This document shows positions 9,952 through 36,013 of a stretch of 36,013 bases of DNA, piece by piece (position 1 is the stretch's first letter; the number at the start of each line of letters is the position of its first letter). The translations under genes and the position numbers were made by a program. The notes beneath the pieces are model-generated. The model worked only from the letters and a program-made list of their open reading frames with translations. It searched no databases and was not told the origin of the DNA. This DNA is from a virus. The stretch spans positions 1 through 36,013 of the IMG/VR virus record IMGVR_UViG_3300040801_003188. The stretch is one strand, 5' to 3'.

Positions 9952-11550
9952 ATGACTATATCAACCCAAAACATTTCCGTTGAATATACGGCCAATGGGA
10001 CAGATACCCAATGGTCGTTTGATTTTGTTTGTTATGATGAAGAGGCTTTGATAGTTGAATTCAATGGTGTTCCCCAAACATTAATCAGAAAGGTAATAAA
10101 CGACGAACAGCAATCCAGCCCGGGCGGACTGGTTTCCGTATTGGATGAGCTTGGGGCAGAACTGCAGCCTGTACCTGTAGCAGGTACAGTAATAAGAATC
10201 GAACGCGAGCAACCGTATACCCAAACTACTTCATTCCCTACTTCTGGAAAATTTCCAGCAAAAGCAACTGAATATACGTTTGATCGCATAGTAATGATGA
10301 TCCAGCAACTGTACCAATACGTGGTTTCTGTTGTCATTGGATCTGGGTTTTTGCAATCGGATGACGATGCGTCCATATCTGGGCAATGGACGTTTTTACA
10401 ACCAATTACTGGCAGCGTAACTGGCAGCGCGGCCAGTGCAGCCACGGCCAGTTTAGCTGGCGATTCTGGCCTTTTGCAAGGTCAGAACGGGGCGTTTTAT
10501 AGGAACGCTGGCAATTTAAACGCTGGTCTTGTGCCCGATGCCAGGGTCCCCGCTTCATCTGTAGTCCAGCATCAGGGGTCATTGTCGATAGCTTGGACTC
10601 AATTGACAGGAACAAAAAACGCTGACCTTTTGCAGGGTCAGAACGGGGCGTTTTACAGGAACGCTGGCAATTTGAATGCTGGTCTTATACCTGATGCCAG
10701 GGTTCCTTCCTCCGCTGTATCTCAGCATCAGGGGTTATTGTCGATAGATTGGACTCAATTGACAGGAACAAAGAATGCTGATCTTTTGCAAGGCCAGAAC
10801 GAGGCGTTTTATAGGAACGCCAGTAATTTGAATGTTGGTACCTTGCCAGGGCAGAGATTTGATGACACATCGCACGGCACCAGAAGCGGCGGTAGTTTGC
10901 ACGCCTTGGCTAATACGTCGTCTCCAGGGTTTATGTCTAGTGCTGATAAACAAAAGCTGGATGCATTAGAACTAAGTGCTATCGAGCCAGAATGGGGGGT
11001 AGCCGGGTTCATAAGTGTTACATCGCCTACTTCATATGTCAGTGTTGATTTGTCCTCCTACTTGACCCCGAACGCCGGGGATAGTCAAGAATTTAAAATT
11101 TGCATAGTGGCCGCACGAGCTAATGATTTTGGTAGACGATTTTTAACTATGCAGTTTGGTATAGGAAATGTGTGGCGGCAAGATGCAATATATCGTATAA
11201 ACAATGGTACGGGCAATGTAGCCGGTCTCCATGTCGGGTACATAAACCCATCCGCCGGGGATGTTAGCCCACCGTTTGGGGTAGATTTATATGGCAGGTA
11301 TTACGAGGGCATATCCGGTGCATCCGAAGTTTCTAGACGCCCGGCTGTATTTTCTACTAAAGCGTGGGGGTATGGTGACCAGACTACAGATTCGTGGCAA
11401 ATAGGTAACAGGGCATACTTTGCTAATGTTACAGGGTGCATAACCGACATAAGATTTTATTCATCTATGTTGGTCAATAGCTCACAAGTACAAACCGATG
11501 GCATTGCTAGTATGAAAATAATTGTGTACGAACGACGTATCCAACCATAG
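9952..11550 (+). CDS. Tail fibre with an N-terminal adaptor-type domain and internal tandem repeats
   Basis: 532 aa. The N-terminus (YTANGTDTQWSFDF...GTVIRIER) is typical of podovirus fibres. It has a 52-aa tandem repeat and an ...HALANTSSPGFMSSADKQKLD motif common in phage fibres. Confidence 0.75.
   Translation: MTISTQNISVEYTANGTDTQWSFDFVCYDEEALIVEFNGVPQTLIRKVINDEQQSSPGGLVSVLDELGAELQPVPVAGTVIRIEREQPYTQTTSFPTSGKFPAKATEYTFDRIVMMIQQLYQYVVSVVIGSGFLQSDDDASISGQWTFLQPITGSVTGSAASAATASLAGDSGLLQGQNGAFYRNAGNLNAGLVPDARVPASSVVQHQGSLSIAWTQLTGTKNADLLQGQNGAFYRNAGNLNAGLIPDARVPSSAVSQHQGLLSIDWTQLTGTKNADLLQGQNEAFYRNASNLNVGTLPGQRFDDTSHGTRSGGSLHALANTSSPGFMSSADKQKLDALELSAIEPEWGVAGFISVTSPTSYVSVDLSSYLTPNAGDSQEFKICIVAARANDFGRRFLTMQFGIGNVWRQDAIYRINNGTGNVAGLHVGYINPSAGDVSPPFGVDLYGRYYEGISGASEVSRRPAVFSTKAWGYGDQTTDSWQIGNRAYFANVTGCITDIRFYSSMLVNSSQVQTDGIASMKIIVYERRIQP
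10471..10845 (+). repeat. 156-nt (52-aa) tandem repeat, about 2.4 copies, inside the tail fibre gene
   Basis: Units start at 10471, 10627 and 10783 (cttttgca[ag]gg[tc]cagaac...). They encode LLQGQNGAFYRNAGNLNAGL[VI]PDARVP...WTQLTGTKNAD. Confidence 0.9.
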
Positions 11551-11741: not shown

Positions 11742-11750
11742 TACCAAAAC

Positions 11751-11778
11751 CCCTCCCACGCCCCGGGGCGTGGGAGGG
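11751..11778 (-). terminator. Intrinsic terminator at the convergence point of the two arms (palindrome family copy 1)
   Basis: 28-nt perfect palindrome ccctcccacgccccggggcgtgggaggg. On the - strand it is followed by gttttggtattatttttt. It lies 9 nt after the stop of the last - strand gene. Confidence 0.75.
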
Positions 11779-11786
11779 TGACCTAC

Positions 11787-12173
11787 TCAATAGGTTGACA
11801 TTTCAGTTCTTGGGGCAAAACGCGGTATTGCACTTTGCCCAACAGTTACCAAATGTGACAGCATCATTGCCCTACACAAAATGTGGTGTGCGTGATTCAT
11901 CTGGGTGTCAGAATCCACGCTGCCGGGGTCATTTTGAAATTCATTTATGTGCCGCAACAAAGACTGCATAACCATTGGAACCGTATAATACTTTGTCCAA
12001 TCCTGGCCCGGGTGTAATTCCTCCCCCATAGTCATTATTTTGGCCATATTTCTAGTGGCAACAGGACTTATCAAATCAAATCTGAGTTTATTAGTGTCCC
12101 CAGATTTTGGCCCCGACTCGGTGTTGCTAACAACGCTATCGTTTGGTTGCAAATCGACTTTGATATCAGACAT
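11787..12173 (-). CDS. mazZ: MazZ/DUF550-type dNTP pyrophosphohydrolase-like protein
   Basis: 128 aa. KLRFDLISPVATRNMAKIMTMGEE...DWTKY...SLLRHINEF...HAHHILCRAMMLSHL matches my recollection of the dATP/dGTP diphosphohydrolase N-terminal family (K.R.DLip.eal..la.vlt.G..KY...NW...RH...HLaHa.cn). It sits in a cluster with the purZ and HD genes. Confidence 0.5.
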   Translation of the reverse strand: MSDIKVDLQPNDSVVSNTESGPKSGDTNKLRFDLISPVATRNMAKIMTMGEELHPGQDWTKYYTVPMVMQSLLRHINEFQNDPGSVDSDTQMNHAHHILCRAMMLSHLVTVGQSAIPRFAPRTEMSTY

Positions 12174-12544
12174 GCATTACTCTCCCATGTTGATATAGTT
12201 GGTTTCTGGCTTTTGCTGAATCTATCGTACCGCGTTCCCATGACCCACACCCAATGACTTTCTGTGCCATCATAGCATAGCAGTAGCGGCATACCGCCGA
12301 CTTTTGTGCGTTTCCTGTACCATCTGACTTGGGTATCCCTTAAATAAATGTACCCCTTGGACCATTGGTGCACAAATTTTATTTCGATTTGATTAGACGC
12401 CCCGTTCAAAAAATAATCTACATCTGGGAATCCGGGGCTGCTGTCAGCGCATTCTATGTTGTTGGCATGCCCCCCGTTCTTTTCTATTTGTTTAATCAAA
12501 TAGTTTTGGACATCGCGTTCAGATCTTAATTGGTCCTGTCTCAT
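12071..12544 (-). CDS. PD-(D/E)XK nuclease, VRR-NUC-like
   Basis: 157 aa. SERDVQNYLIKQIEKNGG...GFPDVDYF...NQIEIKF gives a D...E-x-K catalytic signature with the VRR-NUC-type N-terminal helix. The 3' 103 nt overlap the mazZ-like gene in another frame. Confidence 0.55.
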   Translation of the reverse strand: MRQDQLRSERDVQNYLIKQIEKNGGHANNIECADSSPGFPDVDYFLNGASNQIEIKFVHQWSKGYIYLRDTQVRWYRKRTKVGGMPLLLCYDGTESHWVWVMGTRYDRFSKSQKPTISTWESNACLISKSICNQTIALLATPSRGQNLGTLINSDLI

Positions 12545-13016
12545 ACTCTTTAACCACCTTTTCTATGCTCGAAAACAAAGCCGGATACGTGTTACGAATT
12601 TTTGCTGTAAAATCGCCCCATTTGTTTAAAAGATAATCCGTAACGTTAGCAGAATGCCTACCAACCCCGTAGTCGGACAAGAACCATATAGCATCCAACA
12701 TATCGGCAGCTTTTATTATAATATATTCAGGCTCCGACAGATCCCTATTGTGACCGGAAGAGTACAGCTGTTTAGTTGAATTAAATAGTCTTTCTTTTGT
12801 TGGGGTAGGTATATCGCCATTTATTATTTCATCTAAATCATGTTCTAGCGCCGCTTTTATTATGTTATCGTCATCGATACCGTATTTTTTTGCAATGGCC
12901 CTGGCTATCATCACCACGTTAAAAGTGTGCTCCGCTAACGACTGGTCCCTGGTAGTAGATACGATTACCCATCTTTTAACGGAATGTGCCCTAAGTATGT
13001 CTTGTATATCAAGCAT
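12519..13016 (-). CDS. datZ: HD-domain phosphohydrolase, DatZ-like (dATP triphosphohydrolase candidate)
   Basis: HD motif residues: LAEHTFNV...ALEHDLDEIINGDIP. The likely start is ATG 13016 (MLDIQDIL...), 4 nt after the purZ stop, with AGGA upstream. The track start at 13154 would overlap purZ by 146 nt. About 165 aa. Confidence 0.6.
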   Translation of the reverse strand: MLDIQDILRAHSVKRWVIVSTTRDQSLAEHTFNVVMIARAIAKKYGIDDDNIIKAALEHDLDEIINGDIPTPTKERLFNSTKQLYSSGHNRDLSEPEYIIIKAADMLDAIWFLSDYGVGRHSANVTDYLLNKWGDFTAKIRNTYPALFSSIEKVVKEYETGPIKI

Positions 13017-14046
13017 TTTTTGTATCCTGGTACTCTTTAATGTCCTCATATTTTGGCCCCCATCCGGTGTAAGACACCCCAACGGATCGGTCAACATGGG
13101 CACCACACATGTTATTGATTTCTTTAATAACATGCTCTGTTGATTCAGGCGCATAATTACAGAAATTCAAAAATATGTTTGTCGGTTGGCAAGCAATTAT
13201 AGCCTGCTTCATTTGAATCCTAGAGAACGAAAATACGCGCCTAACCCTGTTTGTTACCGTGGTCACTTCTGGTTCAACCCCGATGTCTGCCCATTCTATC
13301 TCTTCCTGATCCGGATAGCCGGGGCCGGAGAATCCGTTGGGGGTATTGCCGACCCTAATTGGGTGCAACCTAGCGGATCCAATAACTTTATTCAAATAAG
13401 CGTGCGGCACGCCGCAATCGGACAAAAATCTAGCTGGACCACAATCTCTACTGGTACAATATGGCCAGAACCCAGAGTTTATGCCCAAGGAGTAACCTTG
13501 AGCCCCCTCTATTAGAATGGACCTTGCTTTGTCCATTACGTCTAGCCATGTTGCATGACTTACAACGTTCCAGGAACTATCCAGAACATCGGTAGCCAAA
13601 CATAATTTGTCTTTACTTCTACTCATCTTGTCAACCATAGCAGCCATGGACCCCTGCATTGTACTGGCGATATGGTTTAACGAATTTTGCTCCTGTTCTT
13701 TGTGCCTTTCTTGCAGCACCGTGGCGGCCTCGTGTATCAATACTACGAATCTGAGACCTATGTCACGGCAATGTTGCAATTCGCTATACAGGCGTGCCGG
13801 GTCAAACACAGAACCGGGACCAATCATCACAAATTCAGTATTCTTGCCCATAACACCAGACGGCAGAACTTTATGTACCATCTTTATGTTGTCGCCCATC
13901 ATAAAAGTATGCCCAGCATTTGGCATGTTGGCATTGACTACAACTTCGTAATCTTTCTTAAGGGACAAATACCCTGCAATCAGCCCCTTACCTGTTGAGC
14001 CAAACTGCAGATCGACAATAATGTCCGCTTTTCTTCTGTTGTTCAT
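13009..14046 (-). CDS. purZ: PurZ-like N6-succino-2-amino-2'-deoxyadenylate synthase (short adenylosuccinate synthetase homologue)
   Basis: 345 aa versus about 430 for PurA. It aligns by eye to PurA motifs. [11 protein letters not shown] matches GTQWGDEGKGK, with Ser replacing the PurA Asp. NAGHT and LPSG are present. [23 protein letters not shown] matches [32 protein letters not shown] matches GATTGRRRR. Confidence 0.8.
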   Translation of the reverse strand: [345 protein letters not shown]

Positions 14047-14048
14047 TG

Positions 14049-16298
14049 CTATTTCTCCAAGTTGATACCTAAACGAGTTTTAACAACTGATTTCAATAGC
14101 CACAGTGGCGGCACTTCAAATAACCTTGGTCCACTTTTTACCCGTTTGTCTATAAACCCTAATTCACGCAATTTAGCATAAAATATCGTGCTACCTAATA
14201 CATGCCCTTTGACCCTCTCTCTTGACCAATTGGCAAATTCTTCATACAGCATTAATCTGTTAACCCTGCTTGGCCATTTACTATCTGGGTTATCCTCGTC
14301 CGGGGTTTCGAGTGATTCTTGCTCTATAATGCGAGATACCCAATGCACAAACGGCTCAGATAGGGCCAAGCGCTCCCGTTGGTGCTCCAATGCTTCTGTT
14401 TCTGGAGCACGCCTTAGATTGTGGGTTATTTTTCTATTTTGTAGATAATGCAACAAATGCGATAGCCCGGGGCCTTTCATCTGGTCGAAAAATTTATCAA
14501 AATACGCATGGTCATTGACTTTATTGTTGGCTACATCTAGCACAAACCATCTTCGCGACTGTGGGCCAGCCGGTATGAACCAATCCTCGTTGCTGGCCAC
14601 AACCAAATGTATCATATTGCGGTGTTTAGTTACATCTATCCCTTTACGTTCCAACATCAATTCACGTTCAGTAACCAGTCCCTTCAATTTACCGGCTGTT
14701 TTCTTATTGCCGCCCCACAGGATCTCGTCAGCAAACACCAGCAATGCGTCCTGCATGTGAGCATTAAATTTGCCTGTTAAATGCTCATCATCAGTAAGGT
14801 GGACATAATGCGTGCCCAATAATTTGCCTATGGTATTAAATACCATACCTTTTCCGGCACCTTCATCGCCGTGCAAAATGATAGACGCACCTTTTGGGTT
14901 TGCCGGGTCTTGTATTAGATCAGCAAACCAATCCATAACCCAATTATAATGATCTTCGTTCCCTTTACACAAAACATCCCTAACGTGCGACAAAAATACG
15001 CTACAATCCCCCGGGCGAGGCGAGGTTGTGAACCCCTCCCAAGTATTATAATATCCTGATGGAACTTTGCCGTCTGGAAACATGCCGAGGCCATTGTGAT
15101 ATGTTCGCCTAGCCGGGCTGGCTAACCAAATATCAGCAGCTGGCTTTAATACCGGCCCTTTACTGGTGTCGATAACTACCTTTCTAGGCTCCATCCACGT
15201 CCTAAATGAATCTCTATCCAACAATGAATAGCGCGGGTCATCCGATTTGCGGTCGCTGTTTTCAACCAATATCCTAATTTTATTGCCAACCAACACTACG
15301 GCAAATTCTTGATTAAGTTCTTCTACTAGTTCATCGAACGAATTATGATCTACGTCATCCGACCCAGCTGACCATCCCGCTTTTTTGGCGTAATAAACCA
15401 GTGACCCTATTCGCACGGGGCCATCAGATTTAAACCCATTCCACCTTATGTGGCATTCGTTCTTTTTGTACCTGCTGCCGTTTTTGCTCCAACTATCCCA
15501 AACTTCTAACCCATCATCATCAGGGTATTGTGAATGTATGGCTTGCCCTATTCTTAACCATTCGTCATATGTTACTTCATTTTGGTCAATGTAATCCAAC
15601 ATCCGCCTTATTTGGTCTAGCGGTATAGGGCGCTCCACGTCTTCATTGGTCATGCCCTCATTGCCACGGTTACTGTGGCTAGGCGGTTTCCACGGTACGC
15701 CCAATGAATTGTATACGAATGGCGGTATAGCTGTTATTTCGCCGCCCGATTCCCATTCATACCGCTTACCGTTTACTATGGACGGGAATGCTACTATGTG
15801 CGATTTACAGCTGTTACTATCCCCGCCTCTAGTATCCACACCTTTAGCTATTTTACTGGTTGAACTGGTAGCATTTTCTGCCCACAAGTACAAGTAATGC
15901 TTGCCGCCCCTTGGGGTTCGTTGAACCGGGCTATCCGGCAAATCGTTACTTTCATAATTACCTATGCCGTTGCAATCTGGGGTTACATCAGCATCTACAG
16001 CAAACACCCCGCCTTCACGGCCACACGCTATTCCTATGTTATAACCAACGTACCTGCCTGAATCAGGATGAAACCAATTATCTATGACTTTTGGATTTCT
16101 TGAGGCCGCCCCATAGTTTATGGCCTGTACTAATTTACCATTTATTTGCTCTTTCCTGGGCAATCCTTTGCCATTTGGTACTATTGGTAGTACGTATATC
16201 TTGTTTTCTATGTAGTGTTTTGCAGCTAGGTATACTTTCCATTCTTGGGTATAATCATCGGTGTTTATTTGGGCAAGATAATCAGCATCGATTCTCAT
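14049..16298 (-). CDS. Bifunctional primase-polymerase (AEP PrimPol, PriCT-2) fused to a D5/P4-type SF3 helicase
   Basis: The N-terminus (GIACGREGGVFAVDADV...PRGGKHYLYLW...GVDTRGG) has AEP motifs. YDEWLRIGQAIHSQY...WDSWS resembles PriCT-2. The Walker A motif is ILHGDEGAGKGM. ATG 16298 shares one base with the pol stop (TAATG). The track start at 16334 is TTG. Confidence 0.8.
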   Translation of the reverse strand: MRIDADYLAQINTDDYTQEWKVYLAAKHYIENKIYVLPIVPNGKGLPRKEQINGKLVQAINYGAASRNPKVIDNWFHPDSGRYVGYNIGIACGREGGVFAVDADVTPDCNGIGNYESNDLPDSPVQRTPRGGKHYLYLWAENATSSTSKIAKGVDTRGGDSNSCKSHIVAFPSIVNGKRYEWESGGEITAIPPFVYNSLGVPWKPPSHSNRGNEGMTNEDVERPIPLDQIRRMLDYIDQNEVTYDEWLRIGQAIHSQYPDDDGLEVWDSWSKNGSRYKKNECHIRWNGFKSDGPVRIGSLVYYAKKAGWSAGSDDVDHNSFDELVEELNQEFAVVLVGNKIRILVENSDRKSDDPRYSLLDRDSFRTWMEPRKVVIDTSKGPVLKPAADIWLASPARRTYHNGLGMFPDGKVPSGYYNTWEGFTTSPRPGDCSVFLSHVRDVLCKGNEDHYNWVMDWFADLIQDPANPKGASIILHGDEGAGKGMVFNTIGKLLGTHYVHLTDDEHLTGKFNAHMQDALLVFADEILWGGNKKTAGKLKGLVTERELMLERKGIDVTKHRNMIHLVVASNEDWFIPAGPQSRRWFVLDVANNKVNDHAYFDKFFDQMKGPGLSHLLHYLQNRKITHNLRRAPETEALEHQRERLALSEPFVHWVSRIIEQESLETPDEDNPDSKWPSRVNRLMLYEEFANWSRERVKGHVLGSTIFYAKLRELGFIDKRVKSGPRLFEVPPLWLLKSVVKTRLGINLEK

Positions 16299-18151
16299 TA
16301 CATCCACCTGCCAGCGCTTGCACTTTCCCACCAATTATTGCCGGGTTCGTTTACCTCTAAAATAAGTGGTACTCGTAGCGGGTTGTTAGATTCTAACGTG
16401 TTTTTTACATCGCGCGCCTTTTGTGTTACCTGCCCTATTGGCAATGACATGCCGTAACTATCATGCGTGTTAAGTATAAGGCATCCATCGTTCTCGTAAT
16501 CTTCACCAAAATAATCATCCAATAACTCCCAGTTTAATTTATTTATGTCGCCAGCGGTCATCTGTATAGCTATGCCACTAGCTTTGTATGCTTTATACCC
16601 GTTAACAAACCTGAACCTGCGGCCAAACATTGTCTGTATGTAGCCGCGTGACTCAGCTAATTTTTTGGCCTTGTCGGCCAATTTTTTTACAGACCAATTA
16701 AGCCTAGCATGGTATTTGTCTATAATATCTACTGCTTCCGGTCCGGGCTTTCTATATGGTACTTTTTTGCCATTCTTTTCAAAATAGTCCCATTCCCACG
16801 GCAGTCCTATTTTCTGTGCTATGGCTCCCCTGCCAGAATTAAAAATCATACTTAGATTTAGCTGCTTAGCATTTGCTTGGCCACTATAGGTAGCATTACG
16901 TACTATGCCCATCAAATCTGCAACATACTGATGTAAGTCCATTTCTGGATTGGCCAAATAAGCCGATATCAAATTTGGATTATTAACCAAATGAGCAAAT
17001 ACCCTAACCTCAAATGACGACTCATCAGCGTCCACCCACACATGGCCGGGCTCAGGCAAAAAGCATGATTTTACTAGTCTAGCTACCTCTTTATTGCGAG
17101 AAGGTATCTGCTGCAGAGCCGGGTCCACATACGATAGCCTGCCGGTGCCTGTGCCGCCATCCGGCCCTCTGTTCTGATTGATGGTAGGGTACACCCTGCC
17201 ATCAATAGCGTGGCCCAATATGTGTTTGCCAAGAAACGTGTCCCTGGTTTTTATCAATGATCTTATTTCTATTATTAATTTGGCCCTGGGGTCGTCCATT
17301 TCGCGCAGGTACTCGGCCCCCAAACTTGGCCCCCCCTTTGGGGTTTTGCCGATCCTAAAATTGTCTACATACCATTCCCCATCTTCTTTTTGGTACGGCA
17401 CGAATACCTTAGATTTAAGCTGCGGGCCAGAGTTTACGTTTATATTATCCCCGCACAGCTTGTTTAACTCGGCTTGCTTACTTTCAATGATCGGGGTAAG
17501 TTTTTCTTGCGTCTTTTCTGATTCATCTATATCCACCCTCACCCCGCGCATGTTGGCCCTAGTGATGGCCGGAATTTTGGCGCGTTCAAAGTCTATTATC
17601 TTAGATATGCCCTGATTTTTGATCTCAGTTTCTTGCCAAAGCCAAAGATCAAGGCACAATCTAGAGTCTTGTTTGGCGTATTTTGCTGTTACCTCCACCG
17701 GAGCCTCTGATATGCGGCCAATTTGTGCCTTACGGGTAGCTGGACCACCAAACATGGCGGCCAATTCTTCGTATATGTTAGTGTCTTTTCTTTTGTCTAA
17801 ATACAAATAAGCTAGACTATCAAGGTCGTATTCATATAAAGTTTCATCTATCAACGTGGCCCTATTTATGGTACAATCCATCGATCGTATCGGCATCCTT
17901 ATGCCGGACACATGGCTCATCATATAATCAAATTTTGCCCCGTGGCAAATGATTCTACCAGCGTATCCGCTTAACTCGTTGCACAGCCACACTACAACTT
18001 TAGGGCTACGCCTTATGTCCCAATAATAATCATTCCCGTCAGGGGTCGATATTGCAACACCAAAAACTCTGTCAACAGGGTATTGTAGCCCTGTTGTTTC
18101 TGTATCATACGAAAAATAAGGGTATTGTGCTAGTTTTGGGAAGCTGTGCAC
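16298..18151 (-). CDS. Family A DNA polymerase with 3'-5' exonuclease domain (DpoZ candidate)
   Basis: Exo motifs are present: I (YDTETTGL), II (GAKFDYMM) and III (YAKQDSRL). Pol motifs are present: A (DADESSFEVRVFAHL), B (ANAKQLNLSMIFNSG) and C (THDS). The likely start is GTG 18151, 7 nt after GGAG and downstream of a terminator. The track start at 18202 is TTG. Confidence 0.85.
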   Translation of the reverse strand: MHSFPKLAQYPYFSYDTETTGLQYPVDRVFGVAISTPDGNDYYWDIRRSPKVVVWLCNELSGYAGRIICHGAKFDYMMSHVSGIRMPIRSMDCTINRATLIDETLYEYDLDSLAYLYLDKRKDTNIYEELAAMFGGPATRKAQIGRISEAPVEVTAKYAKQDSRLCLDLWLWQETEIKNQGISKIIDFERAKIPAITRANMRGVRVDIDESEKTQEKLTPIIESKQAELNKLCGDNINVNSGPQLKSKVFVPYQKEDGEWYVDNFRIGKTPKGGPSLGAEYLREMDDPRAKLIIEIRSLIKTRDTFLGKHILGHAIDGRVYPTINQNRGPDGGTGTGRLSYVDPALQQIPSRNKEVARLVKSCFLPEPGHVWVDADESSFEVRVFAHLVNNPNLISAYLANPEMDLHQYVADLMGIVRNATYSGQANAKQLNLSMIFNSGRGAIAQKIGLPWEWDYFEKNGKKVPYRKPGPEAVDIIDKYHARLNWSVKKLADKAKKLAESRGYIQTMFGRRFRFVNGYKAYKASGIAIQMTAGDINKLNWELLDDYFGEDYENDGCLILNTHDSYGMSLPIGQVTQKARDVKNTLESNNPLRVPLILEVNEPGNNWWESASAGRWM

Positions 18152-18165
18152 AGTATTGCTCCGAT

Positions 18166-18191
18166 AAAAAAGGGGGGACCAAAGTCCCCCC
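18166..18191 (-). terminator. Rho-independent terminator/attenuator between the SSB-like gene and the polymerase gene
   Basis: The - strand reads GGGGGGAC-TTTG-GTCCCCCC followed by TTTTTTAT. That is an 8-bp GC stem (18172-18179 / 18184-18191) and a T-run (18166-18171). Confidence 0.75.
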
Positions 18192-18202
18192 AATCTGGGC
18201 AA

Positions 18203-18937
18203 TTACAACTCAGGTTCTTCCTCGGCCACCGTATCGCTGCCGTGATCAATGGACTTGATACCAGATCTGATCTGGCCATACATGCTCTCGGCCATGTGAA
18301 AAATTTCCTCAGTAACATAACCGAGCGGCGTTACTTTCATGTTCCAGTAATCGTCACCGTTAGCGTTCTGGTCCTCGATTGATTGGATCTTATACGCCCT
18401 CGAAAAACGATCACCCCCGGCGATACGAATGATGCTATTCCATGCCCGGCTAACCTTGGCCTTGCTTTTGGCCATGGAAATGACAACCTCCTGGATTGGG
18501 CCATCTTGCGGGATCAGCAGACAAAAATGCTGCCCGGTGTCCAAGATCTCGCAATCATTTACGTCCTCTAGGGTGTGCATGAACGATACTGCCTCATCTT
18601 CGGAGTCATACGATCCCTTGAATCCGCCGCCCTTTTTGCGATCCTTCCACACTACCCATTCTTTGCGATACAAAACAGGCACGACAGTAATCTCGGGACC
18701 ATACAGCTCATTGGTTACCGTGTTAAACAACATGCCAGCCTCTGCCCCTTCAATGTACTCAGGCTTATTGGCCTTTACCTGTGGGGACAGGTCTTGCAGC
18801 ACATCGACCCTAGGGATTGTTAGATCATCCACCCCCACATTTTCTGACCCGCGCATACTGCCTGGGTTCATAAAATCCGGACGTTCTTCGCTGAACGACA
18901 TTGCACTACTCTTCTTTTTTGCTACTGCTCTGGCCAT
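18203..18937 (-). CDS. Putative ssDNA-binding/recombination-associated protein with an acidic C-terminal tail
   Basis: 244 aa, located between replication genes, with C-terminus ...DTVAEEEPEL. No catalytic motif is visible. The call rests on context and the tail only. Confidence 0.35.
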   Translation of the reverse strand: MARAVAKKKSSAMSFSEERPDFMNPGSMRGSENVGVDDLTIPRVDVLQDLSPQVKANKPEYIEGAEAGMLFNTVTNELYGPEITVVPVLYRKEWVVWKDRKKGGGFKGSYDSEDEAVSFMHTLEDVNDCEILDTGQHFCLLIPQDGPIQEVVISMAKSKAKVSRAWNSIIRIAGGDRFSRAYKIQSIEDQNANGDDYWNMKVTPLGYVTEEIFHMAESMYGQIRSGIKSIDHGSDTVAEEEPEL

Positions 18938-18976
18938 TTTATGTTCCTCTGTTCACTGTTCACTGTTAAACGTTCA

Positions 18977-19375
18977 CTATTTGGTTAGTGAAGCTCGGCT
19001 AAATGACGATAACTTAAATAAGTCGTCAGGCACCGGTTCACCCTTACTTATCTCTTCCTTGATAAAAGCCTTGAGGGTAGAGCTATTGATCGTAGGAATT
19101 GGGTTAAGCCCACGATCAGCCAACCAAGCATAGGCTTCGTCCTTATGGTCTGCATTGATTGAACATGACAGATCGTCAGTCAACCCCAACCGACCATATC
19201 CTTTTACCCGCACTGATCCATCGATTCCCATCTCCTCAAAAGCAGCTGGGATATCCTGCATGCGGATCTTGTTCCATTCATGGTACAGTTCATTTGATCG
19301 TTGTTTGGCCTCTTCATACGCTTCTTTTGCGCGTTGGAAGCGGGCAGCCAACTCTTGCAATTTGGTTTCGTCCAC
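18977..19375 (-). CDS. Hypothetical protein (N-terminal coiled coil)
   Basis: 132 aa. GTG start follows AGACAGGAGACAAAGAC, the same initiation context as gene 26412..26600. Confidence 0.6.
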   Translation of the reverse strand: MDETKLQELAARFQRAKEAYEEAKQRSNELYHEWNKIRMQDIPAAFEEMGIDGSVRVKGYGRLGLTDDLSCSINADHKDEAYAWLADRGLNPIPTINSSTLKAFIKEEISKGEPVPDDLFKLSSFSRASLTK

Positions 19376-19390
19376 GTCTTTGTCTCCTGT

Positions 19391-19729
19391 CTAAATTACG
19401 TAAATATCATACTTTAGCATGCGATTATTCCATTTGAGAATTTTGTGCTTTACATTACCTCCCCATTGGGCCAAATGTTTACCAATAGCAAGAACTACCA
19501 CTGGGTTACCTGTCATCATTAGATAGTCATGACCAGGGATATACTCACTTAGTGACAGCATGATTTCTGACATTACCCGGCTGTTAGTTTCCCTTGTTGG
19601 GTCATACTGCATGTCCAATGACGGCACCAAATCTTGATGCGTTATGAACACCAACTCGCCGTATTCTTGCGCTGGCGAATAGTTGATCTTTTGTACATAC
19701 TGTGCGACATATACTTTGCTTTGACTCAT
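19391..19729 (-). CDS. Hypothetical protein
   Basis: 112 aa. ATG 19729 is preceded by AGGAGAccgca and lies directly downstream of the promoter at 19754-19782. Confidence 0.65.
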   Translation of the reverse strand: MSQSKVYVAQYVQKINYSPAQEYGELVFITHQDLVPSLDMQYDPTRETNSRVMSEIMLSLSEYIPGHDYLMMTGNPVVVLAIGKHLAQWGGNVKHKILKWNNRMLKYDIYVI

Positions 19730-19753: not shown

Positions 19754-19782
19754 ATTATACCACATGCGGCGAGCCGTGTCTA
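19754..19782 (-). promoter_or_regulatory. Sigma70-like promoter: TAGACA-17 nt-TATAAT with TGTGG extended -10
   Basis: The - strand reads TAGACAcggctcgccgcatgtggTATAAT. The -35 overlaps the SNF2 stop codon. The RBS and ATG of 19391..19729 lie about 20 nt downstream. Confidence 0.6.
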
Positions 19783-21522
19783 CCCTCGTTCCGCAAGCTT
19801 AGTGGTGACAAACGTAGATATAGATTGTTTAGTGGCCAGGGCCTCTATTATCATTTTGTCTACCTCGTGATCCAACACCAGATCCACAACAAGAATTCCC
19901 CTGGACCTGTTGTTGTCGTCACCCCTGGCCAATGACTGTTCCCTGTCGTTGTAACTAAATGTGTTTGAGTAATAGATCATAGAGTCCGCATTTTGTAAGG
20001 GCAACCCTCTGCCACCAGTTTGGGCATTAGATAAGAAAAATTGGCAATTGTCGTCCTTATGGAACCTACGTATTGCCTCCGCCCTTTCTTCCGGCGAATT
20101 AACCCCGCCATGATACTCTACGCAACAACCCTCACCAAAATTGCTTACTAAGTGATCTTTTATGATGCTTAATTCAGGCCTGAATCTAGCCCATATGATT
20201 GTTTTACTGTCGCGTCCTATTTGTTCTATTACGTTTAGCAAGCCATCTAATTTTGGATTTTTGTTTAACGGCTTTATTTCGTACTGCTCATCGCCGTTGT
20301 CATCCTTCCCAATGGGGATCGGCAAAAATCCGCCCGCTATTTGTTGGTAACGCAATAGCCGCTCTAATACTGTTTCTACTTCAAGAATGCCGGAATCGGT
20401 CTCTATTGCAAAAATGTCTTTCAACGACGCTATGTGTTGCCGCTGTTCCTTGCTAGGCTCGATATACCTAGTTTCAAAAACAGCATCTGGCAAATTCGGC
20501 ATGGCTTGCTTTTTGGTGACAATATCAATGTACGGGCCAATCAAGTCAAACAATTCGTTAGTATTTTTATACCCTTCAATCGTGCGAAATGAACGACCAC
20601 TACTAGGCCCATGTTTGATTATAATTTCTCGTTCAACTAAATACCTGTTTTTGAACGAATAATAATTCGGCACCCCAATTATGGACCAATTCATGGCATA
20701 AAATTGAGAGTACAAATCTTGCACGCCTTGCGTCACTGGGGTGCCGTTTAACAAAGCGATATACGCGGCACTGCCACATATATCTGTTACCCTGCGCGTT
20801 CTCATAGATTTATGATTTTTGATAGATACTGATTCATCTATGATGACCATCACTTTACGGTCTTTCATAAAATGATTAGCATACTTAAACGCGTTGCCTT
20901 GGCTAAATGCTTCTACGCCGATCACCAAACACGGCATCGGCCCCTGGCCTTCCCCCCTGTGTACTGCATCCCAATCTAAAAACTTGCGGTGTTGCCCGGA
21001 TCGCAACATATGGGAGGAGTGAGGCAGTGTCATAAATTTGGCCAATTGCCCGTCGCTGCCGATCCAAACCGGGCCAACTGCAGATGGCGGTATGATCAAT
21101 ACCGCATTTATTTCCCCCCTTGCGGCCAGTGCTGACGCCCACTGGATAGCAGTGTATGATTTGCCTGCACGCATAGCGTGGGCAAAGTAAAAATACTTTT
21201 TGCCCCAAGCCCTATTTAAAGCTTTTAATTGGTGCGGCCGTGGCGGGTCGCTAGGCCATTGGTGGTCTAAAGGGAACTCGTTCTTTGACTTTTCTACTTT
21301 ATCGTTTATCTTACTTATAGCTACTTTGGCGGCACTAGTTATTTCTTCCTGGTCATACTGAGAAATGATTTCACGAGCTGTGGGTACTATGGCTGGGGCT
21401 TCCCAAGACCTAGACGATTTAATCCACTTAGCTGACGGTATGGTTTTAACTCTACCGTTGTCCCAATAGGGACAACGTATCTGGAACATTCCTTTATTGA
21501 AGTCTACGGTGGCTACTTTCAT
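19780..21522 (-). CDS. SNF2/DEAD-like superfamily 2 helicase
   Basis: Motif II is IIDESVSIKN. The C-terminal helicase motifs are SNAQTGGRGLPLQNADSMIYYSNTFSYNDREQSLARG. The likely start is ATG 21522 (MKVATVDF), 9 nt after AGGAG. The track start at 21582 is a GTG inside the hairpin. Confidence 0.8.
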   Translation of the reverse strand: MKVATVDFNKGMFQIRCPYWDNGRVKTIPSAKWIKSSRSWEAPAIVPTAREIISQYDQEEITSAAKVAISKINDKVEKSKNEFPLDHQWPSDPPRPHQLKALNRAWGKKYFYFAHAMRAGKSYTAIQWASALAARGEINAVLIIPPSAVGPVWIGSDGQLAKFMTLPHSSHMLRSGQHRKFLDWDAVHRGEGQGPMPCLVIGVEAFSQGNAFKYANHFMKDRKVMVIIDESVSIKNHKSMRTRRVTDICGSAAYIALLNGTPVTQGVQDLYSQFYAMNWSIIGVPNYYSFKNRYLVEREIIIKHGPSSGRSFRTIEGYKNTNELFDLIGPYIDIVTKKQAMPNLPDAVFETRYIEPSKEQRQHIASLKDIFAIETDSGILEVETVLERLLRYQQIAGGFLPIPIGKDDNGDEQYEIKPLNKNPKLDGLLNVIEQIGRDSKTIIWARFRPELSIIKDHLVSNFGEGCCVEYHGGVNSPEERAEAIRRFHKDDNCQFFLSNAQTGGRGLPLQNADSMIYYSNTFSYNDREQSLARGDDNNRSRGILVVDLVLDHEVDKMIIEALATKQSISTFVTTKLAERG

Positions 21523-21552
21523 GCCACATATCTCCTGTCTATGTCTTAAAAT

Positions 21553-21578
21553 CCTCCCACGCCCCGGGGCGTGGGAGG
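21553..21578 (-). terminator. Palindrome family copy 2. Possible attenuator between gene 21603..22037 and the SNF2 gene.
   Basis: 26-nt perfect palindrome cctcccacgccccggggcgtgggagg. On the - strand it is followed by attttaa. Confidence 0.5.
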
Positions 21579-21602: not shown

Positions 21603-22037
21603 TTATGCTGCCTTTTTGGTCTTCTCCTTCTCGGCCTTGGCCAAGGCCCTGGCCTTCTCGGCCTTGGCCTTCTCGACCTTGGCCCTGGCCTTCTCCTTCT
21701 CGGCCTTGGCCTTCTCCGCTTCCTTTACCCGTGCATCGCGGGACTTACGAGCAGAAGCACTGGCCTTATTCAGGTCGGCATTCTCATTCTTTGCCACGTA
21801 GGCGCGAATTCGATTACCAATAATCATGCGCTGCTGGCCTGGGTTCAGATGGCTATAATCCTTGTCCAGCGCAGAACCAGTCAGCTTATCAAACACATCG
21901 GTCACTTCTTCAACGGTCATTCCTTCTAGAACTGCAGCAACATCATCACCACAGTTTAGGGTCTTTGCGCCAGAAGGGCTGCGACCTTTGGTGTACTTAG
22001 AAGTATCGGGCTTAATAACAGTCTTTTCGTCACTCAT
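21603..22037 (-). CDS. LNPGQxRM-motif protein with a Lys/Ala/Glu-rich (histone-H1-like) C-terminal tail. Candidate DNA-binding protein.
   Basis: The likely start is ATG 22037 (MSDEKTV), 6 nt after GGAGA. It is a paralogue of 25647..26168 (DYSHLNPGQQRMIIGNRIRAY vs KYESLNPGQIRMNSGNRLRAA). The tail is KEAEKAKAEKEKARAKVEKAKAEKARALAKAEKEKTKKAA. Confidence 0.6.
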   Translation of the reverse strand: MSDEKTVIKPDTSKYTKGRSPSGAKTLNCGDDVAAVLEGMTVEEVTDVFDKLTGSALDKDYSHLNPGQQRMIIGNRIRAYVAKNENADLNKASASARKSRDARVKEAEKAKAEKEKARAKVEKAKAEKARALAKAEKEKTKKAA

Positions 22038-22090
22038 CGTTTTTCTCCATCGAGGATTAAAATAACATAGGTTATTCAACCTACACCATT

Positions 22091-23428: not shown

Positions 23429-23456
23429 GTCTATTCCTCCACAGAGTGAAATCACC

Positions 23457-23476
23457 CCCACGCTCCGGGGCGTGGG
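23457..23476 (-). promoter_or_regulatory. Palindrome family copy 3 (7-bp stem cccacgc/gcgtggg, 6-nt loop)
   Basis: cccacgctccggggcgtggg, located between promoter-like 23488-23517 and the RBS of gene 22547..23428. Confidence 0.6.
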
Positions 23477-23487
23477 AGATACGTGTC

Positions 23488-23517
23488 ATGATACCACACA
23501 TCTCCTGTCTATGTCTA
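23488..23517 (-). promoter_or_regulatory. Sigma70-like promoter candidate: TAGACA-18 nt-TATCAT with TGTGG extended -10
   Basis: The - strand reads TAGACAtagacaggagatgtgtggTATCAT. It starts right after the stop of 23518..23838. Confidence 0.45.
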
Positions 23518-23838
23518 CTAATACTTAGATTTTCTGCGTCGGCCCGGCTCGTGAATCGTATTCAACAACTTTTTTGCCAACTCGACAGCACCATCGTGAG
23601 GATTGTGTAACACAGTTTCCCCAGTGTCTACATCATAGTGGAATTTCTCATCCGTCAGTGCCAGCTGTTCGCGTGTCGCACTTCGAGTCAGGATCGGGCT
23701 GCCGTTAATAAAAATTGTCACGGTTATCATGGTTTGGTGTCCTTTGTTTGGTCTGGTCTCCACGCCTCGTTCGAGGAGTTCATAATCGCAGTGCGTACAG
23801 AACACACTGTAGTCCCCGTGCTTTTCACAGTAGGCCAT
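23518..23838 (-). CDS. Hypothetical protein with an N-terminal Cys/His cluster
   Basis: ATG 23838 overlaps the upstream TGA (TGATG), with GGAGGG 6 nt upstream. The N-terminus is MAYCEKHGDYSVFCTHCDYE. Confidence 0.6.
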   Translation of the reverse strand: MAYCEKHGDYSVFCTHCDYELLERGVETRPNKGHQTMITVTIFINGSPILTRSATREQLALTDEKFHYDVDTGETVLHNPHDGAVELAKKLLNTIHEPGRRRKSKY

Positions 23839-24964: not shown

Positions 24965-25040
24965 TGGTGGGTCTGGCAGGACTCGAACCTGCAGTCTACC
25001 GATTATGAGTCAGCTGCTTTAACCTTTAAGCTACAGACCC
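24965..25040 (-). tRNA. tRNA with CAT anticodon (elongator Met or lysidine-dependent Ile2), with CCA encoded
   Basis: Folded by hand: acceptor GGGTCTG/CAGACCC; D arm GCTT-AAAGGTTA-AAGC; anticodon arm GCTGA-CTCATAA-TCGGT; variable loop AGACT; T arm GCAGG-TTCGAGT-CCTGC; then A-CCA. G1-C72 is paired, so it is not an initiator. Confidence 0.85.
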
Positions 25041-25419: not shown

Positions 25420-25650
25420 CTACGTTACGGCTTCGAGCATTGATTTGAATCTCAGCCTGATGAATTCCGGTGCTTTAATTAACACGCGCACCGGCATTTT
25501 TTGGGCCCGTGCTGACCTCACCATTCTGGCGGCCTGATCAACAGACTCGGCCAGGGTACAATTGGTTGCACGGACGTCCCACGACTGGCCGACAGCACGG
25601 ACCACGAAATTGCTGTCGGCCAGTTCTACCCTAACTACGACCTTGTTCAC
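25420..25650 (-). CDS. Hypothetical protein
   Basis: 76 aa. The GTG start overlaps the upstream TGA (GTGA). Confidence 0.5.
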   Translation of the reverse strand: MNKVVVRVELADSNFVVRAVGQSWDVRATNCTLAESVDQAARMVRSARAQKMPVRVLIKAPEFIRLRFKSMLEAVT

Positions 25651-26168
25651 TCCACGTCACCCCTCTGCTTGACCATGGCCCGCATCGCGGCCTTGACGTT
25701 ATCCAGGGTGATATCCCTACGTTTGATTGCCGCACGCAGCCTGTTGCCGCTGTTCATCCGGATCTGGCCGGGGTTCAGGGATTCGTATTTGGCCATCAGC
25801 CAGCCGGGTTCATCCCCGTCCACAGACAGGGCGATTTCCGCAGCCAAACAAACGTCGTTAGGTGACAAAGGACGCAGAACCTCGGCCAATTCGTCTCCCG
25901 TGTTTTGGGTCTTTTTGCCAGAGTAGGAGACGTCCTCGTGGTACCCAGCGCGGTATTTGGCCAGGATTTGGCTCATTTTCCTGCCGTCAGCTGGCGCGTG
26001 ATCCAGCTGGGATTCCCTGGCCTTGATTACTGTGCCGTCTGGGCAGGTGATTTCGTACCACCCTTTCTGGTAACCCGTGACAGTGCCTTCGTAGGTTCCG
26101 GATTTGGTGGTAGCACGAACCTGAGCGCCGTGGTCGAAAGCAGGCGCGTTGTCTGTTTTGCTGGTCAT
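25647..26168 (-). CDS. LNPGQxRM-motif protein with an N-terminal SH3/KOW-like segment (paralogue of 21603..22037)
   Basis: 173 aa. ATG follows AGGAGACAGACCA. It shares a ~75-aa region with 21603..22037 (SG.KT.N.GD..A.VL...Y..LNPGQ.RM..GNR.RA). Confidence 0.6.
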   Translation of the reverse strand: MTSKTDNAPAFDHGAQVRATTKSGTYEGTVTGYQKGWYEITCPDGTVIKARESQLDHAPADGRKMSQILAKYRAGYHEDVSYSGKKTQNTGDELAEVLRPLSPNDVCLAAEIALSVDGDEPGWLMAKYESLNPGQIRMNSGNRLRAAIKRRDITLDNVKAAMRAMVKQRGDVE

Positions 26169-26684: not shown

Positions 26685-26740
26685 CTACCGTTCGTCGGGT
26701 TGTCGGGTTGTCCTTGTGCGCCACGCCCGCCGAACCGCGT

Positions 26741-26758
26741 CCACGCCCCGGGGCGTGG
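26741..26758. promoter_or_regulatory. Palindrome family copy 4
   Basis: ccacgccccggggcgtgg, an 18-nt perfect palindrome. A half-site-like ccacgccc also occurs at 26721-26728. Confidence 0.6.
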
Positions 26759-26922
26759 GAAGCCGAACCAGGAGCCCAGCTGGGGGCTGGGGTTTGCTGT
26801 TCGCGGTTCGCGTACGGAGGGAAGGGGGCTGGCCCCCCCAACCGGGGCCCCCGGACCCCGGACCCCTGGTTTTTCTTCCCAAAATAACGGTCCGAGATTT
26901 TTAATATATTGCATAGTCTTCT

Positions 26923-26944
26923 TCCCACGCTCCGGAGCGTGGGA
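26923..26944. promoter_or_regulatory. Palindrome family copy 5, abutting the -35 of the rightward promoter
   Basis: tcccacgctccggagcgtggga, a 22-nt perfect palindrome. Both central changes (C>T and G>A) are compensatory relative to copies 1, 2 and 4. Confidence 0.65.
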
Positions 26945-26947
26945 GGC

Positions 26948-33302: not shown

Positions 33303-33330
33303 CCCCCGGCCAAAAGGCCGGGGGTCTTTT
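33303..33330 (+). terminator. Rho-independent terminator after the capsid gene
   Basis: CCCCCGGCC-aaaa-GGCCGGGGG followed by TCTTTT. Confidence 0.85.
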
Positions 33331-33355
33331 GGGGCAAAACAAGAGGCGGTATAGC

Positions 33356-36007: not shown

Positions 36008-36013
36008 GAATAT
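35897..36013. repeat. Terminal direct repeat, copy 2 (identical to 1-117)
   Basis: Exact 117-nt match to the window start. Confidence 0.95.

Follow-up and report, generated by a model that had tools for sequence, protein, structure and literature searches.

A phiVC8-like podovirus genome with a predicted 2-aminoadenine DNA module and a stand-alone DUF5664 gene in the place of MazZ

Does the gene block at positions 11,787 to 18,151 of the IMG/VR virus record IMGVR_UViG_3300040801_003188 encode the apparatus for DNA that contains 2-aminoadenine (Z)? The whole stretch analyzed here, hereafter the window, is 36,013 nucleotides (nt) long and corresponds to a whole JGI metagenome contig. The original prediction had described four adjacent co-directional genes beside a PolA gene and a PrimPol-helicase gene and had read them as the triad PurZ, DatZ, and MazZ with a nuclease embedded among them. 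Six genes were found in this region, all of them on the minus strand (Table 1), and the end at 18151 was correct, as judged by an upstream hairpin with a T-run and by GGAG-N7-GTG at the start of the polymerase gene. PurZ and DatZ were borne out by models and residues, but MazZ was not, since the third enzyme is a DUF5664 protein. As far as the sequence can tell, the block is a genuine and apparently complete Z module, as indicated by curated models, diagnostic residues, and its place in the PurZ clade. The window very probably represents a phiVC8-like podovirus whose replication operon holds a functional module of this kind.

For PurZ, DatZ, and the polymerase DpoZ, the assignments are given by curated models, diagnostic residues, and phylogeny. 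On these grounds, the 345-amino-acid (aa) adenylosuccinate synthetase homolog is PurZ. It scored 325 bits against the PurZ model NF038379 (amino_Aden_PurZ; cutoff, 300 bits), whereas the PurA models gave 57 to 147 bits, all far below their cutoffs of 368 to 700 (146.8 versus 368, 113.8 versus 395, and 111.8 versus 402 bits for the PurA equivalogs). The cutoffs for PurZ and DpoZ are those of the NCBI curated, exception-level NCBIfam models. The protein also matched phrog_1211 (3.7e-85), and in the structure database it matched the PurZ proteins of phiVC8 (6FM1; 7e-100) and S-2L (5e-67) far ahead of the best PurA (5e-26). Thus, the profile comparison suggested together with the original prediction came out on the side of PurZ.

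The residues told the same story. The P-loop reads DLQFGSTGKG where Escherichia coli PurA has TQWGDEGKG, and NAGHT and EGAQG are kept; these motifs, including GSTGKG, had been pointed out before and were verified in the alignment, in which PurA is the longer protein by 87 aa. Ser stands in place of the catalytic PurA residue Asp13, a change whose role has been described (PMC8342488, PMC8515928, 10.1101/2025.10.22.683976), and the neighboring aromatic residue F12 (phiVC8 numbering) is present. Where PurA has its TKLD region, the window protein reads FLNFCNY (the ATP-type site; F295 and Y298 in phiVC8), and it also carries a T-T-V-T loop (EVTTVTNRVRR). In an alignment of 10 PurZ sequences, F292-L293-N294-F295, Y298, and T262-T265 (window numbering) were invariant; the roles of the PurZ diagnostic residues have been reported previously (PMC8342488, 10.1101/2025.10.22.683976).

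A small bootstrapped tree of 14 sequences, built by neighbor joining and hence by a simple distance method, placed the synthetase inside the PurZ clade (98/100) and outside PurA and PurZ0, with a phiVC8-like plus Bm1 clade at 96/100. It included the PurZ proteins of phiVC8, BUCT555, ZP6, Bm1, Bhz9, Kokobel2, S-2L, and two IMG/VR contigs, PurZ0 from Wayne and Ghobes, and PurA from MaF61 and E. coli. The protein therefore lies within PurZ and not within PurA, and the objection that had been named in advance, a position among true PurA proteins, fails. As an observation on the MaF61 sequence in this tree, the Flavobacterium phage of that name (168 kb; our locus L016, 1465 to 2808) has a gene annotated as "adenosuccinate synthetase" that reads GSSGKG, with Ser at the position of PurA Asp13; it has large insertions and branches outside the PurZ clade.

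The HD-domain hydrolase next to it is DatZ, a predicted dATP triphosphohydrolase. It matched phrog_7076 at 4e-31, and in the comparison with DatZ that had been proposed earlier, its top PDB match was the S-2L enzyme (6ZPA; 1.6e-10), ahead of YfbR. Residues W16, I18, H30, H59, D60, E63, and D105 align with W20, I22, H34, H66, D67, E70, and D119 of S-2L DatZ, which includes the HD signature recognized at the outset (H30, H59-D60, and D105). The W20/I22 specificity pair (S-2L numbering) and the HD metal ligands together have been used as a criterion for DatZ (10.1101/2025.10.22.683976). The ATG of datZ overlaps the purZ stop codon as ATGCTTGA, and the two genes overlap by 8 nt, so no gene lies between them. 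A 211-aa open reading frame (ORF) at this place is an upstream extension of DatZ, and the JGI gene call likewise has 165 aa.

The family A polymerase is DpoZ and is predicted to be Z selective. It scored 807 bits against NF038380 (phage_DpoZ_1; cutoff, 500 bits) and 180 bits against the PolA equivalog (cutoff, 720 bits), and phmmer gave 2.8e-189 for phiVC8 DpoZ (7PBK) versus 2e-38 for Klenow. Both exonuclease motifs, DxE (YDTET) and FDY, are intact. The three polymerase-domain insertions of DpoZ (as defined in PMC8599892), at 349 to 353, 442 to 448, and 473 to 491 of the phiVC8 enzyme, are present as DGGTG, YSGQANA, and a loop of about 19 residues. In helix E2, R161 is conserved, and position 165 has the allowed variant I in place of M (PMC8599892). 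The gene starts with GTG behind the ribosome-binding site already mentioned, and its stop codon overlaps the ATG of the PrimPol-helicase gene as TAATG. The original prediction had singled out the joint presence of a PolA, a PrimPol-helicase, and a further nuclease as unusual; this layout is in fact canonical, since phiVC8, ZP6, and BUCT555 have homologous genes in the same order. With this canonical layout, the core finding is an ordinary one.

What sets the module apart from these phages is its last gene. The 128-aa protein had been placed in the DUF550/MazZ-type family, and this assignment did not hold. Its only Pfam match was PF18909 (62.7 bits; cutoff, 27 bits; E = 3.4e-17; profile positions 7 to 91 of 99), which is DUF5664 (PMC12884076), and no Pfam match to DUF550 (PF04447) or to any MazG-type family was obtained. 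The precomputed annotation is PF18909 as well, and the PHROG is phrog_801. A remote relationship to MazG was considered and dropped after hhalign showed no relation, as was a relationship to the DUF6378 protein encoded by the last gene in phiVC8, ZP6, and BUCT555, for which BLASTP and hhalign showed none. A sequence search against the PDB gave no match, and in a word-indexed search the protein alone found only itself; its relatives were retrieved with an alignment as the query. The AlphaFold2 model is a helical bundle with a mean pLDDT of 81.8. The ORF has a GGGAGAG ribosome-binding site ahead of its ATG, and the invariant DUF5664 residues G50, W59, R74, H75, and D87 are kept. MazZ-1, MazZ-2, MazG, and DUF550 were absent from the whole genome in tblastn searches with the MazZ proteins of phiVC8, ZP6, and BUCT555 and in searches with local hidden Markov models.

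As reported previously, the DUF5664 protein of Arthrobacter phage Wayne hydrolyzes dATP, dGTP, and dUTP to the corresponding dNMP (PMC12884076), and the diphosphohydrolase activity is known only for this protein and for the fusion protein of SH-Ab 15497 (PMC12884076). PF18909 is also among the domains that colocalize with PurZ on contigs experimentally enriched for dZ (10.1101/2025.10.22.683976). To place the window among its relatives, the best 80 of at least 438 PurZ loci in IMG/VR were surveyed. The order PurZ, DatZ, nuclease, DUF5664 without MazZ was present in nine of these loci and in the window, and the MazZ-less loci fell at no fewer than two or three places on a weakly resolved PurZ tree. 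DUF5664 was encoded in all of the loci in which purZ and datZ abut (9/9; 8/8 in a nonredundant set with PurZ less than 90% identical) and in 13 of the 62 with a gene in the purZ-datZ gap (12/48 nonredundant), an association with a Fisher P value of 6.7e-6 for all loci and 8.9e-5 for the nonredundant loci. Given the Wayne activity, the colocalization with PurZ, and the pairing with MazZ-less loci, the stand-alone DUF5664 protein is likely a functional substitute for MazZ. A more specific proposal is that of a recurrent phiVC8-like sublineage that has lost MazZ and in which the stand-alone DUF5664, at the end of the operon and overlapping the nuclease gene, would be the only phage-encoded dGTP/dATP diphosphohydrolase; we regard the case for it as evenly balanced.

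From what is established about the biochemistry of the homologs, we infer the chemistry as a whole, together with the MazZ-like role of DUF5664 and the Z content of the virion. The 128-aa enzyme would convert dGTP to dGMP and probably also dATP to dAMP, and PurZ would combine dGMP with Asp and ATP to form N6-succino-2-amino-2'-deoxyadenylate (dSMP). The host PurB and host kinases would then carry dSMP to dZTP while DatZ would destroy dATP. Finally, DpoZ, primed by the PrimPol-helicase, would prefer dZTP opposite T and so produce packaged ZTGC DNA.

The remaining gene of the block encodes the PD-(D/E)XK nuclease named in the original prediction, here described as VRR-NUC-like: E31, P40-D41, E54-I-K56 (the E54-x-K56 motif), and Q72 are invariant across nine homologs. 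It matched phrog_2165 at 5e-10 and phiVC8 p23 at 2e-7 by BLASTP, and it is also homologous to ORF20 of ZP6, which has been called a VRR-NUC protein, with a reported HHpred value of 7.5e-9 against 4QBN (PMC8515928). Pfam and NCBIfam scans gave no match, and the profile of the nuclease against VRR-NUC 4QBO was weak (E = 0.28). The 3' end of the gene is overlapped out of frame by the DUF5664 gene at 12071 to 12173 (103 nt), and the nuclease ORF contains part of the aligned DUF5664 domain in the window and in 16 of 20 related loci (L019 to L083). On the sister contigs L013 and L014, the nuclease is missing from the JGI calls, for which this overlap is the probable reason. The protein is a conserved neighbor of DatZ and probably serves replication or recombination rather than a Z-specific function.

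Several observations weigh against a functional module with DUF5664 in the place of MazZ. The sequence is that of a metagenome contig. DpoZ lacks the exonuclease-domain insertion at 117 to 127 of the phiVC8 and ZP6 enzymes (an 11-residue gap, as in BUCT555), which has been proposed to assist the passage of the primer from polymerase site to exonuclease site and back (Czernecki et al.), although it is not a defining feature of DpoZ. In hhalign comparisons, the probability of DUF5664 matching MazZ-2, MazG, or DUF550 was below 1%. Foldseek with the 128-aa model found no significant PDB match; the weak ones, at E values above 0.7, were MazG, HisE, DCTPP1, and S-2L MazZ, which suggests a MazG-like fold below the level of significance. 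The Fisher statistics ignore phylogenetic relatedness. Moreover, the window protein is the most divergent of the PurZ-linked DUF5664 set and has substitutions at the near-invariant K53, Y54, G62, G82, and E83, with LH for KY at 53 and 54, so this copy may have an altered substrate preference. Finally, Wayne DUF5664 prefers dATP tenfold over dGTP (PMC12884076), so the window protein may mainly clear dATP and add little to the supply of dGMP.

Some of these points can be read in other ways. The module could be real but incomplete, with MazZ lost, the divergent DUF5664 perhaps inactive or mainly a dATPase/dUTPase, dGMP taken from the pool of the host or from the breakdown of its DNA, and only partial substitution of A by Z. 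The genome indeed has no MazZ-type gene, the change from KY to LH and the other substitutions and the dATP preference of the Wayne enzyme are in line with this explanation, and Z incorporation in E. coli falls when mazZ is missing, an effect that is synergistic with a lack of datZ (PMC8342488). We nevertheless consider it quite improbable: the strictly invariant residues are all retained, the gene follows a strong ribosome-binding site and belongs to the operon, ahead of the terminator, and every MazZ-less relative keeps DUF5664, which points to selection on that function. Alternatively, the 345-aa protein could be the product of a common auxiliary metabolic gene of the PurA type, raising AMP synthesis in a phage with normal adenine. 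This would fit the Pfam Adenylsucc_synt match that the protein also has, and PurA-like genes occur in some large phages, such as MaF61. The model scores, the change of Asp13 to Ser, NFCN in the TKLD region, the branch within PurZ, and the position between DpoZ/PrimPol and DatZ, exactly as in phiVC8, rule this out and leave it practically no chance.

Another reading makes the nuclease a fourth, Z-specific component at the core of the pathway; it might, for instance, degrade host DNA that contains A and spare Z-DNA. In 66 of the 74 IMG/VR loci with enough sequence, its gene comes directly after datZ, and it also follows datZ in phiVC8, ZP6, BUCT555, Bm1, Bhz9, and Kokobel2; a tblastn search of 50,697 phage records matched PurZ phages only; and, having no Pfam model, the nuclease would be invisible to Pfam-based association studies. 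However, the search tools reach close relatives only, so these matches are biased to Z phages, and S-2L has an annotated VRR-NUC gene elsewhere, adjoining its helicase and PrimPol genes. Nuclease homologs also occur in PolA/SNF2/PrimPol replication modules with no PurZ within 4 kb, adjoining PolA in L102 (4001 to 5551) and L099 (4001 to 4399), and in L102 a PF18909 gene lies near the nuclease homolog. Both accessory genes, the nuclease and PF18909, therefore also circulate outside Z clusters. In view of these two modules with distant homologs, exclusivity of the nuclease to Z phages was dropped as unsupported, and a Z-specific function seems unlikely.

Compared with known Z phages, the window has the layout of the phiVC8 group. 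The cluster of phiVC8 (Vibrio, Enhodamvirus) comprises DpoZ, primase, PurZ, MazZ-2, DatZ, the p23 nuclease, and p22. Gene order and orientation match those of the window, including the upstream genes for an SNF2 helicase and for gp33-like and gp34-like proteins, and the operon likewise converges on the tail fiber genes in a genome of similar size with a podovirus structural module. Identities to the window are 49% for DpoZ, 43% for the primase, 48% for PurZ, and 41% for DatZ, and the nuclease is homologous to p23. phiVC8 differs in that its purZ and datZ flank an 86-aa MazZ-2 gene and that its last gene is DUF6378-like, neither of which applies to the window; the window instead has the purZ/datZ overlap, DUF5664 as its last gene, and a DpoZ without the 117-to-127 insertion. 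Two other phiVC8-like podoviruses, ZP6 of Alteromonas (Mareflavirus) and BUCT555 of Stenotrophomonas, likewise encode DpoZ, a primase, PurZ, DatZ, and a nuclease that is VRR-NUC-like. Their PurZ proteins are 48 to 51% identical to that of the window, and BUCT555 DpoZ also lacks the exonuclease insertion, but in both phages a MazG-type gene occupies the purZ-datZ gap and the terminal gene is DUF6378. The order SNF2 helicase, gp33-like, gp34-like, DpoZ, primase, PurZ, DatZ, nuclease is common to phiVC8, ZP6, BUCT555, and the closest IMG/VR contigs.

These contigs, the closest relatives found, are L019 to L022 (UViG_3300006097_000023, 3300022933_000012, 3300028925_012725, and _012764). Their architecture is identical (DpoZ, PrimPol, PurZ, DatZ, nuclease, and DUF5664, with no MazZ), and the DUF5664 gene likewise overlaps the 3' end of the nuclease gene, but their DUF5664 proteins keep KY where the window has LH. 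Their PurZ proteins are 56 to 58% identical to that of the window, and an identity of only about 55 to 58% makes the window phage a different species or genus; about 58% is the highest PurZ identity among the relatives found, whether cultured or from IMG/VR. The SH-Ab 15497 group (Acinetobacter; Bhz9) and Providencia phage Kokobel2 share PurZ, DatZ, the nuclease, PolA, and the PF18909 domain. They differ in being siphoviruses with PurZ 38 to 43% identical and in that DUF5664 is the N-terminal domain of a 317- to 401-aa fusion with DUF550 (PF04447) whose gene fills the purZ-datZ gap.

Cyanophage S-2L (PurZ, MazZ-1, and DatZ) shares PurZ with the E value given above and a homologous DatZ with conserved W/I specificity residues. 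It differs in being a siphovirus with no PolA/DpoZ and with PrimPol as its only polymerase (PMC8342488), in having MazZ-1, of the MazG-HisE fold, between purZ and datZ, and in the annotated VRR-NUC gene being elsewhere in the genome. Phage Wayne, of the PurZ0 type, has a separate DUF5664 beside its synthetase that is biochemically a dATP/dGTP/dUTP diphosphohydrolase; it differs in having PurZ0 and not PurZ, another DpoZ clade, and DutZ/DmtZ and not DatZ, and its DUF5664 is about 22% identical to the window protein.

As a whole, the window represents a complete phiVC8-like podovirus genome. Positions 1 to 117 and 35897 to 36013 are 100% identical over 117 nt, so the contig closes on itself with a unique genome of 35,896 bp; the terminal identity reflects either a circular assembly or a short terminal repeat. 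A prophage or host-island origin was ruled out, as the contig is self-closing and all genes to which a function can be assigned are phage genes. The plus strand encodes the small and large terminase, portal, scaffold-like protein, major head protein, tail tubular proteins A and B, internal virion proteins, and tail fiber, and the minus strand encodes the early and replication genes. The Z region is the 3' half of one minus-strand operon of tightly packed, co-directional genes that extends from near 19,782, where a promoter-like site lies, across the gp32-, gp33-, and gp34-like genes and the six genes described above to a hairpin, where it converges on the tail fiber module. Homologs of the gp33-like and gp34-like genes occupy the same position in phiVC8 (p33 and p32). 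Ribosome-binding sites precede the starts of DpoZ, PurZ, and DUF5664. The hairpin ahead of DpoZ, a possible attenuator or terminator, could dampen transcription into the polymerase and Z genes, and the one at the operon end is likely a bidirectional terminator.

Table 1. Features of the Z region and its operon in the window
Feature	Position	Strand	Basis
Hairpin, 12-bp GC-rich palindrome, at the convergence of the Z operon and the tail fiber module	11751..11778	.	One of five genome copies
Stand-alone DUF5664 protein (PF18909, dGTP_diPhyd_N), putative dGTP/dATP diphosphohydrolase, 128 aa	11787..12173	-	Pfam, phrog_801, ribosome-binding site
VRR-NUC-like PD-(D/E)XK nuclease	12071..12544	-	phrog_2165, phiVC8 p23 homology, invariant motif
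DatZ, predicted HD-domain dATP triphosphohydrolase, 165 aa	12519..13016	-	phrog_7076, 6ZPA, residues
PurZ, predicted N6-succino-2-amino-2'-deoxyadenylate synthase, 345 aa	13009..14046	-	NF038379, 6FM1, residues, tree
PrimPol/PriCT-2/DUF5906 primase-helicase	14049..16298	-	Pfam; 43% identity to phiVC8 p28 over 753 aa
DpoZ, predicted family A DNA polymerase with 3'-5' exonuclease, phiVC8 type	16298..18151	-	NF038380, 7PBK, insertions
GC hairpin GGGGGGAC-TTTG-GTCCCCCC followed by T6, between the gp34-like stop and the DpoZ start	18165..18191	-	
Pam3 gp32-like, gp33-like, and gp34-like replication-module genes, conserved	18203..19729	-	Pfam PF23992, PF23984, PF23977; tblastn synteny
Sigma-70-like promoter candidate, TAGACA-17-TATAAT, 11/12 matches	19754..19782	-	Consensus scan; role inferred

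The palindrome at the operon end recurs in the genome. The GC-rich sequence CCTCCCACGCCCCGGGGCGTGGGAGG is present in five copies (11747 to 11777, 21548 to 21578, 23449 to 23479, 26732 to 26762, and 26916 to 26946), two of them perfect over 26 nt and three diverged (74 to 84% identical). The copies sit at or near the boundaries of gene blocks, including the 3' end of the Z operon and a 750-bp high-GC divergent intergenic region, and a 35-nt promoter-like repeat adjoins two of them (21521 to 21555 and 23491 to 23525). They look like phage-specific terminator or processing elements.

Other features of the genome were recorded as well. Two consecutive large ORFs (33329 to 36007 and 116 to 1312) lie between the head and tail genes; one has 892 aa and no family match, and the other has 398 aa and a He_PIG Ig-like domain. 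Both are 57 to 59% GC in a genome with a mean of about 45%, and the early region at 24 to 27 kb is 52 to 61% GC. Within the tail fiber gene (9952 to 11550), 2.4 tandem copies of a 156-nt unit occupy positions 10466 to 10839 with 86% identity and encode 52-aa repeats (LLQGQNGAFYRNAGNLNAG...). A tRNA-Met gene (CAT) is located among the early genes (24965 to 25040, minus strand), and the Burkholderia Z phage Bm1 has a tRNA-Met gene too, just upstream of DpoZ (L008, 2959 to 3031). A 158-aa ORF (21603 to 22079, minus strand) has a C-terminal repeat rich in Lys, Ala, and Glu (KAEKEKA...) that arises from tandem repeats of 21 to 42 nt at 21610 to 21720. This ORF and one of 173 aa (25647 to 26168) both match phrog_8941 and may thus be paralogs.

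In general, the window presents a known Z system in a new complete genome, in which the replacement of MazZ by a stand-alone DUF5664 is a minor, recurrent variant in accessory genes. The phiVC8-like Z-DNA podoviruses thereby gain a genome that is complete and circularly closed, and the known mechanism of Z-DNA synthesis stays unchanged. For annotation, the PurZ and DpoZ models identify such phages unambiguously, and gene callers miss the nuclease gene, probably through its overlap with the next gene. If the proposed sublineage is real, its toolkit of PurZ, DatZ, and DUF5664 would blend the published PurZ-type and PurZ0-type gene sets and would run counter to the earlier generalization of a mazZ gene conserved in every case between datZ and purZ. 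The strict pairing of DUF5664 with MazZ-less clusters offers a testable case of nonhomologous enzyme substitution in the supply of dGMP, in keeping with the picture of functional convergence published in 2026.

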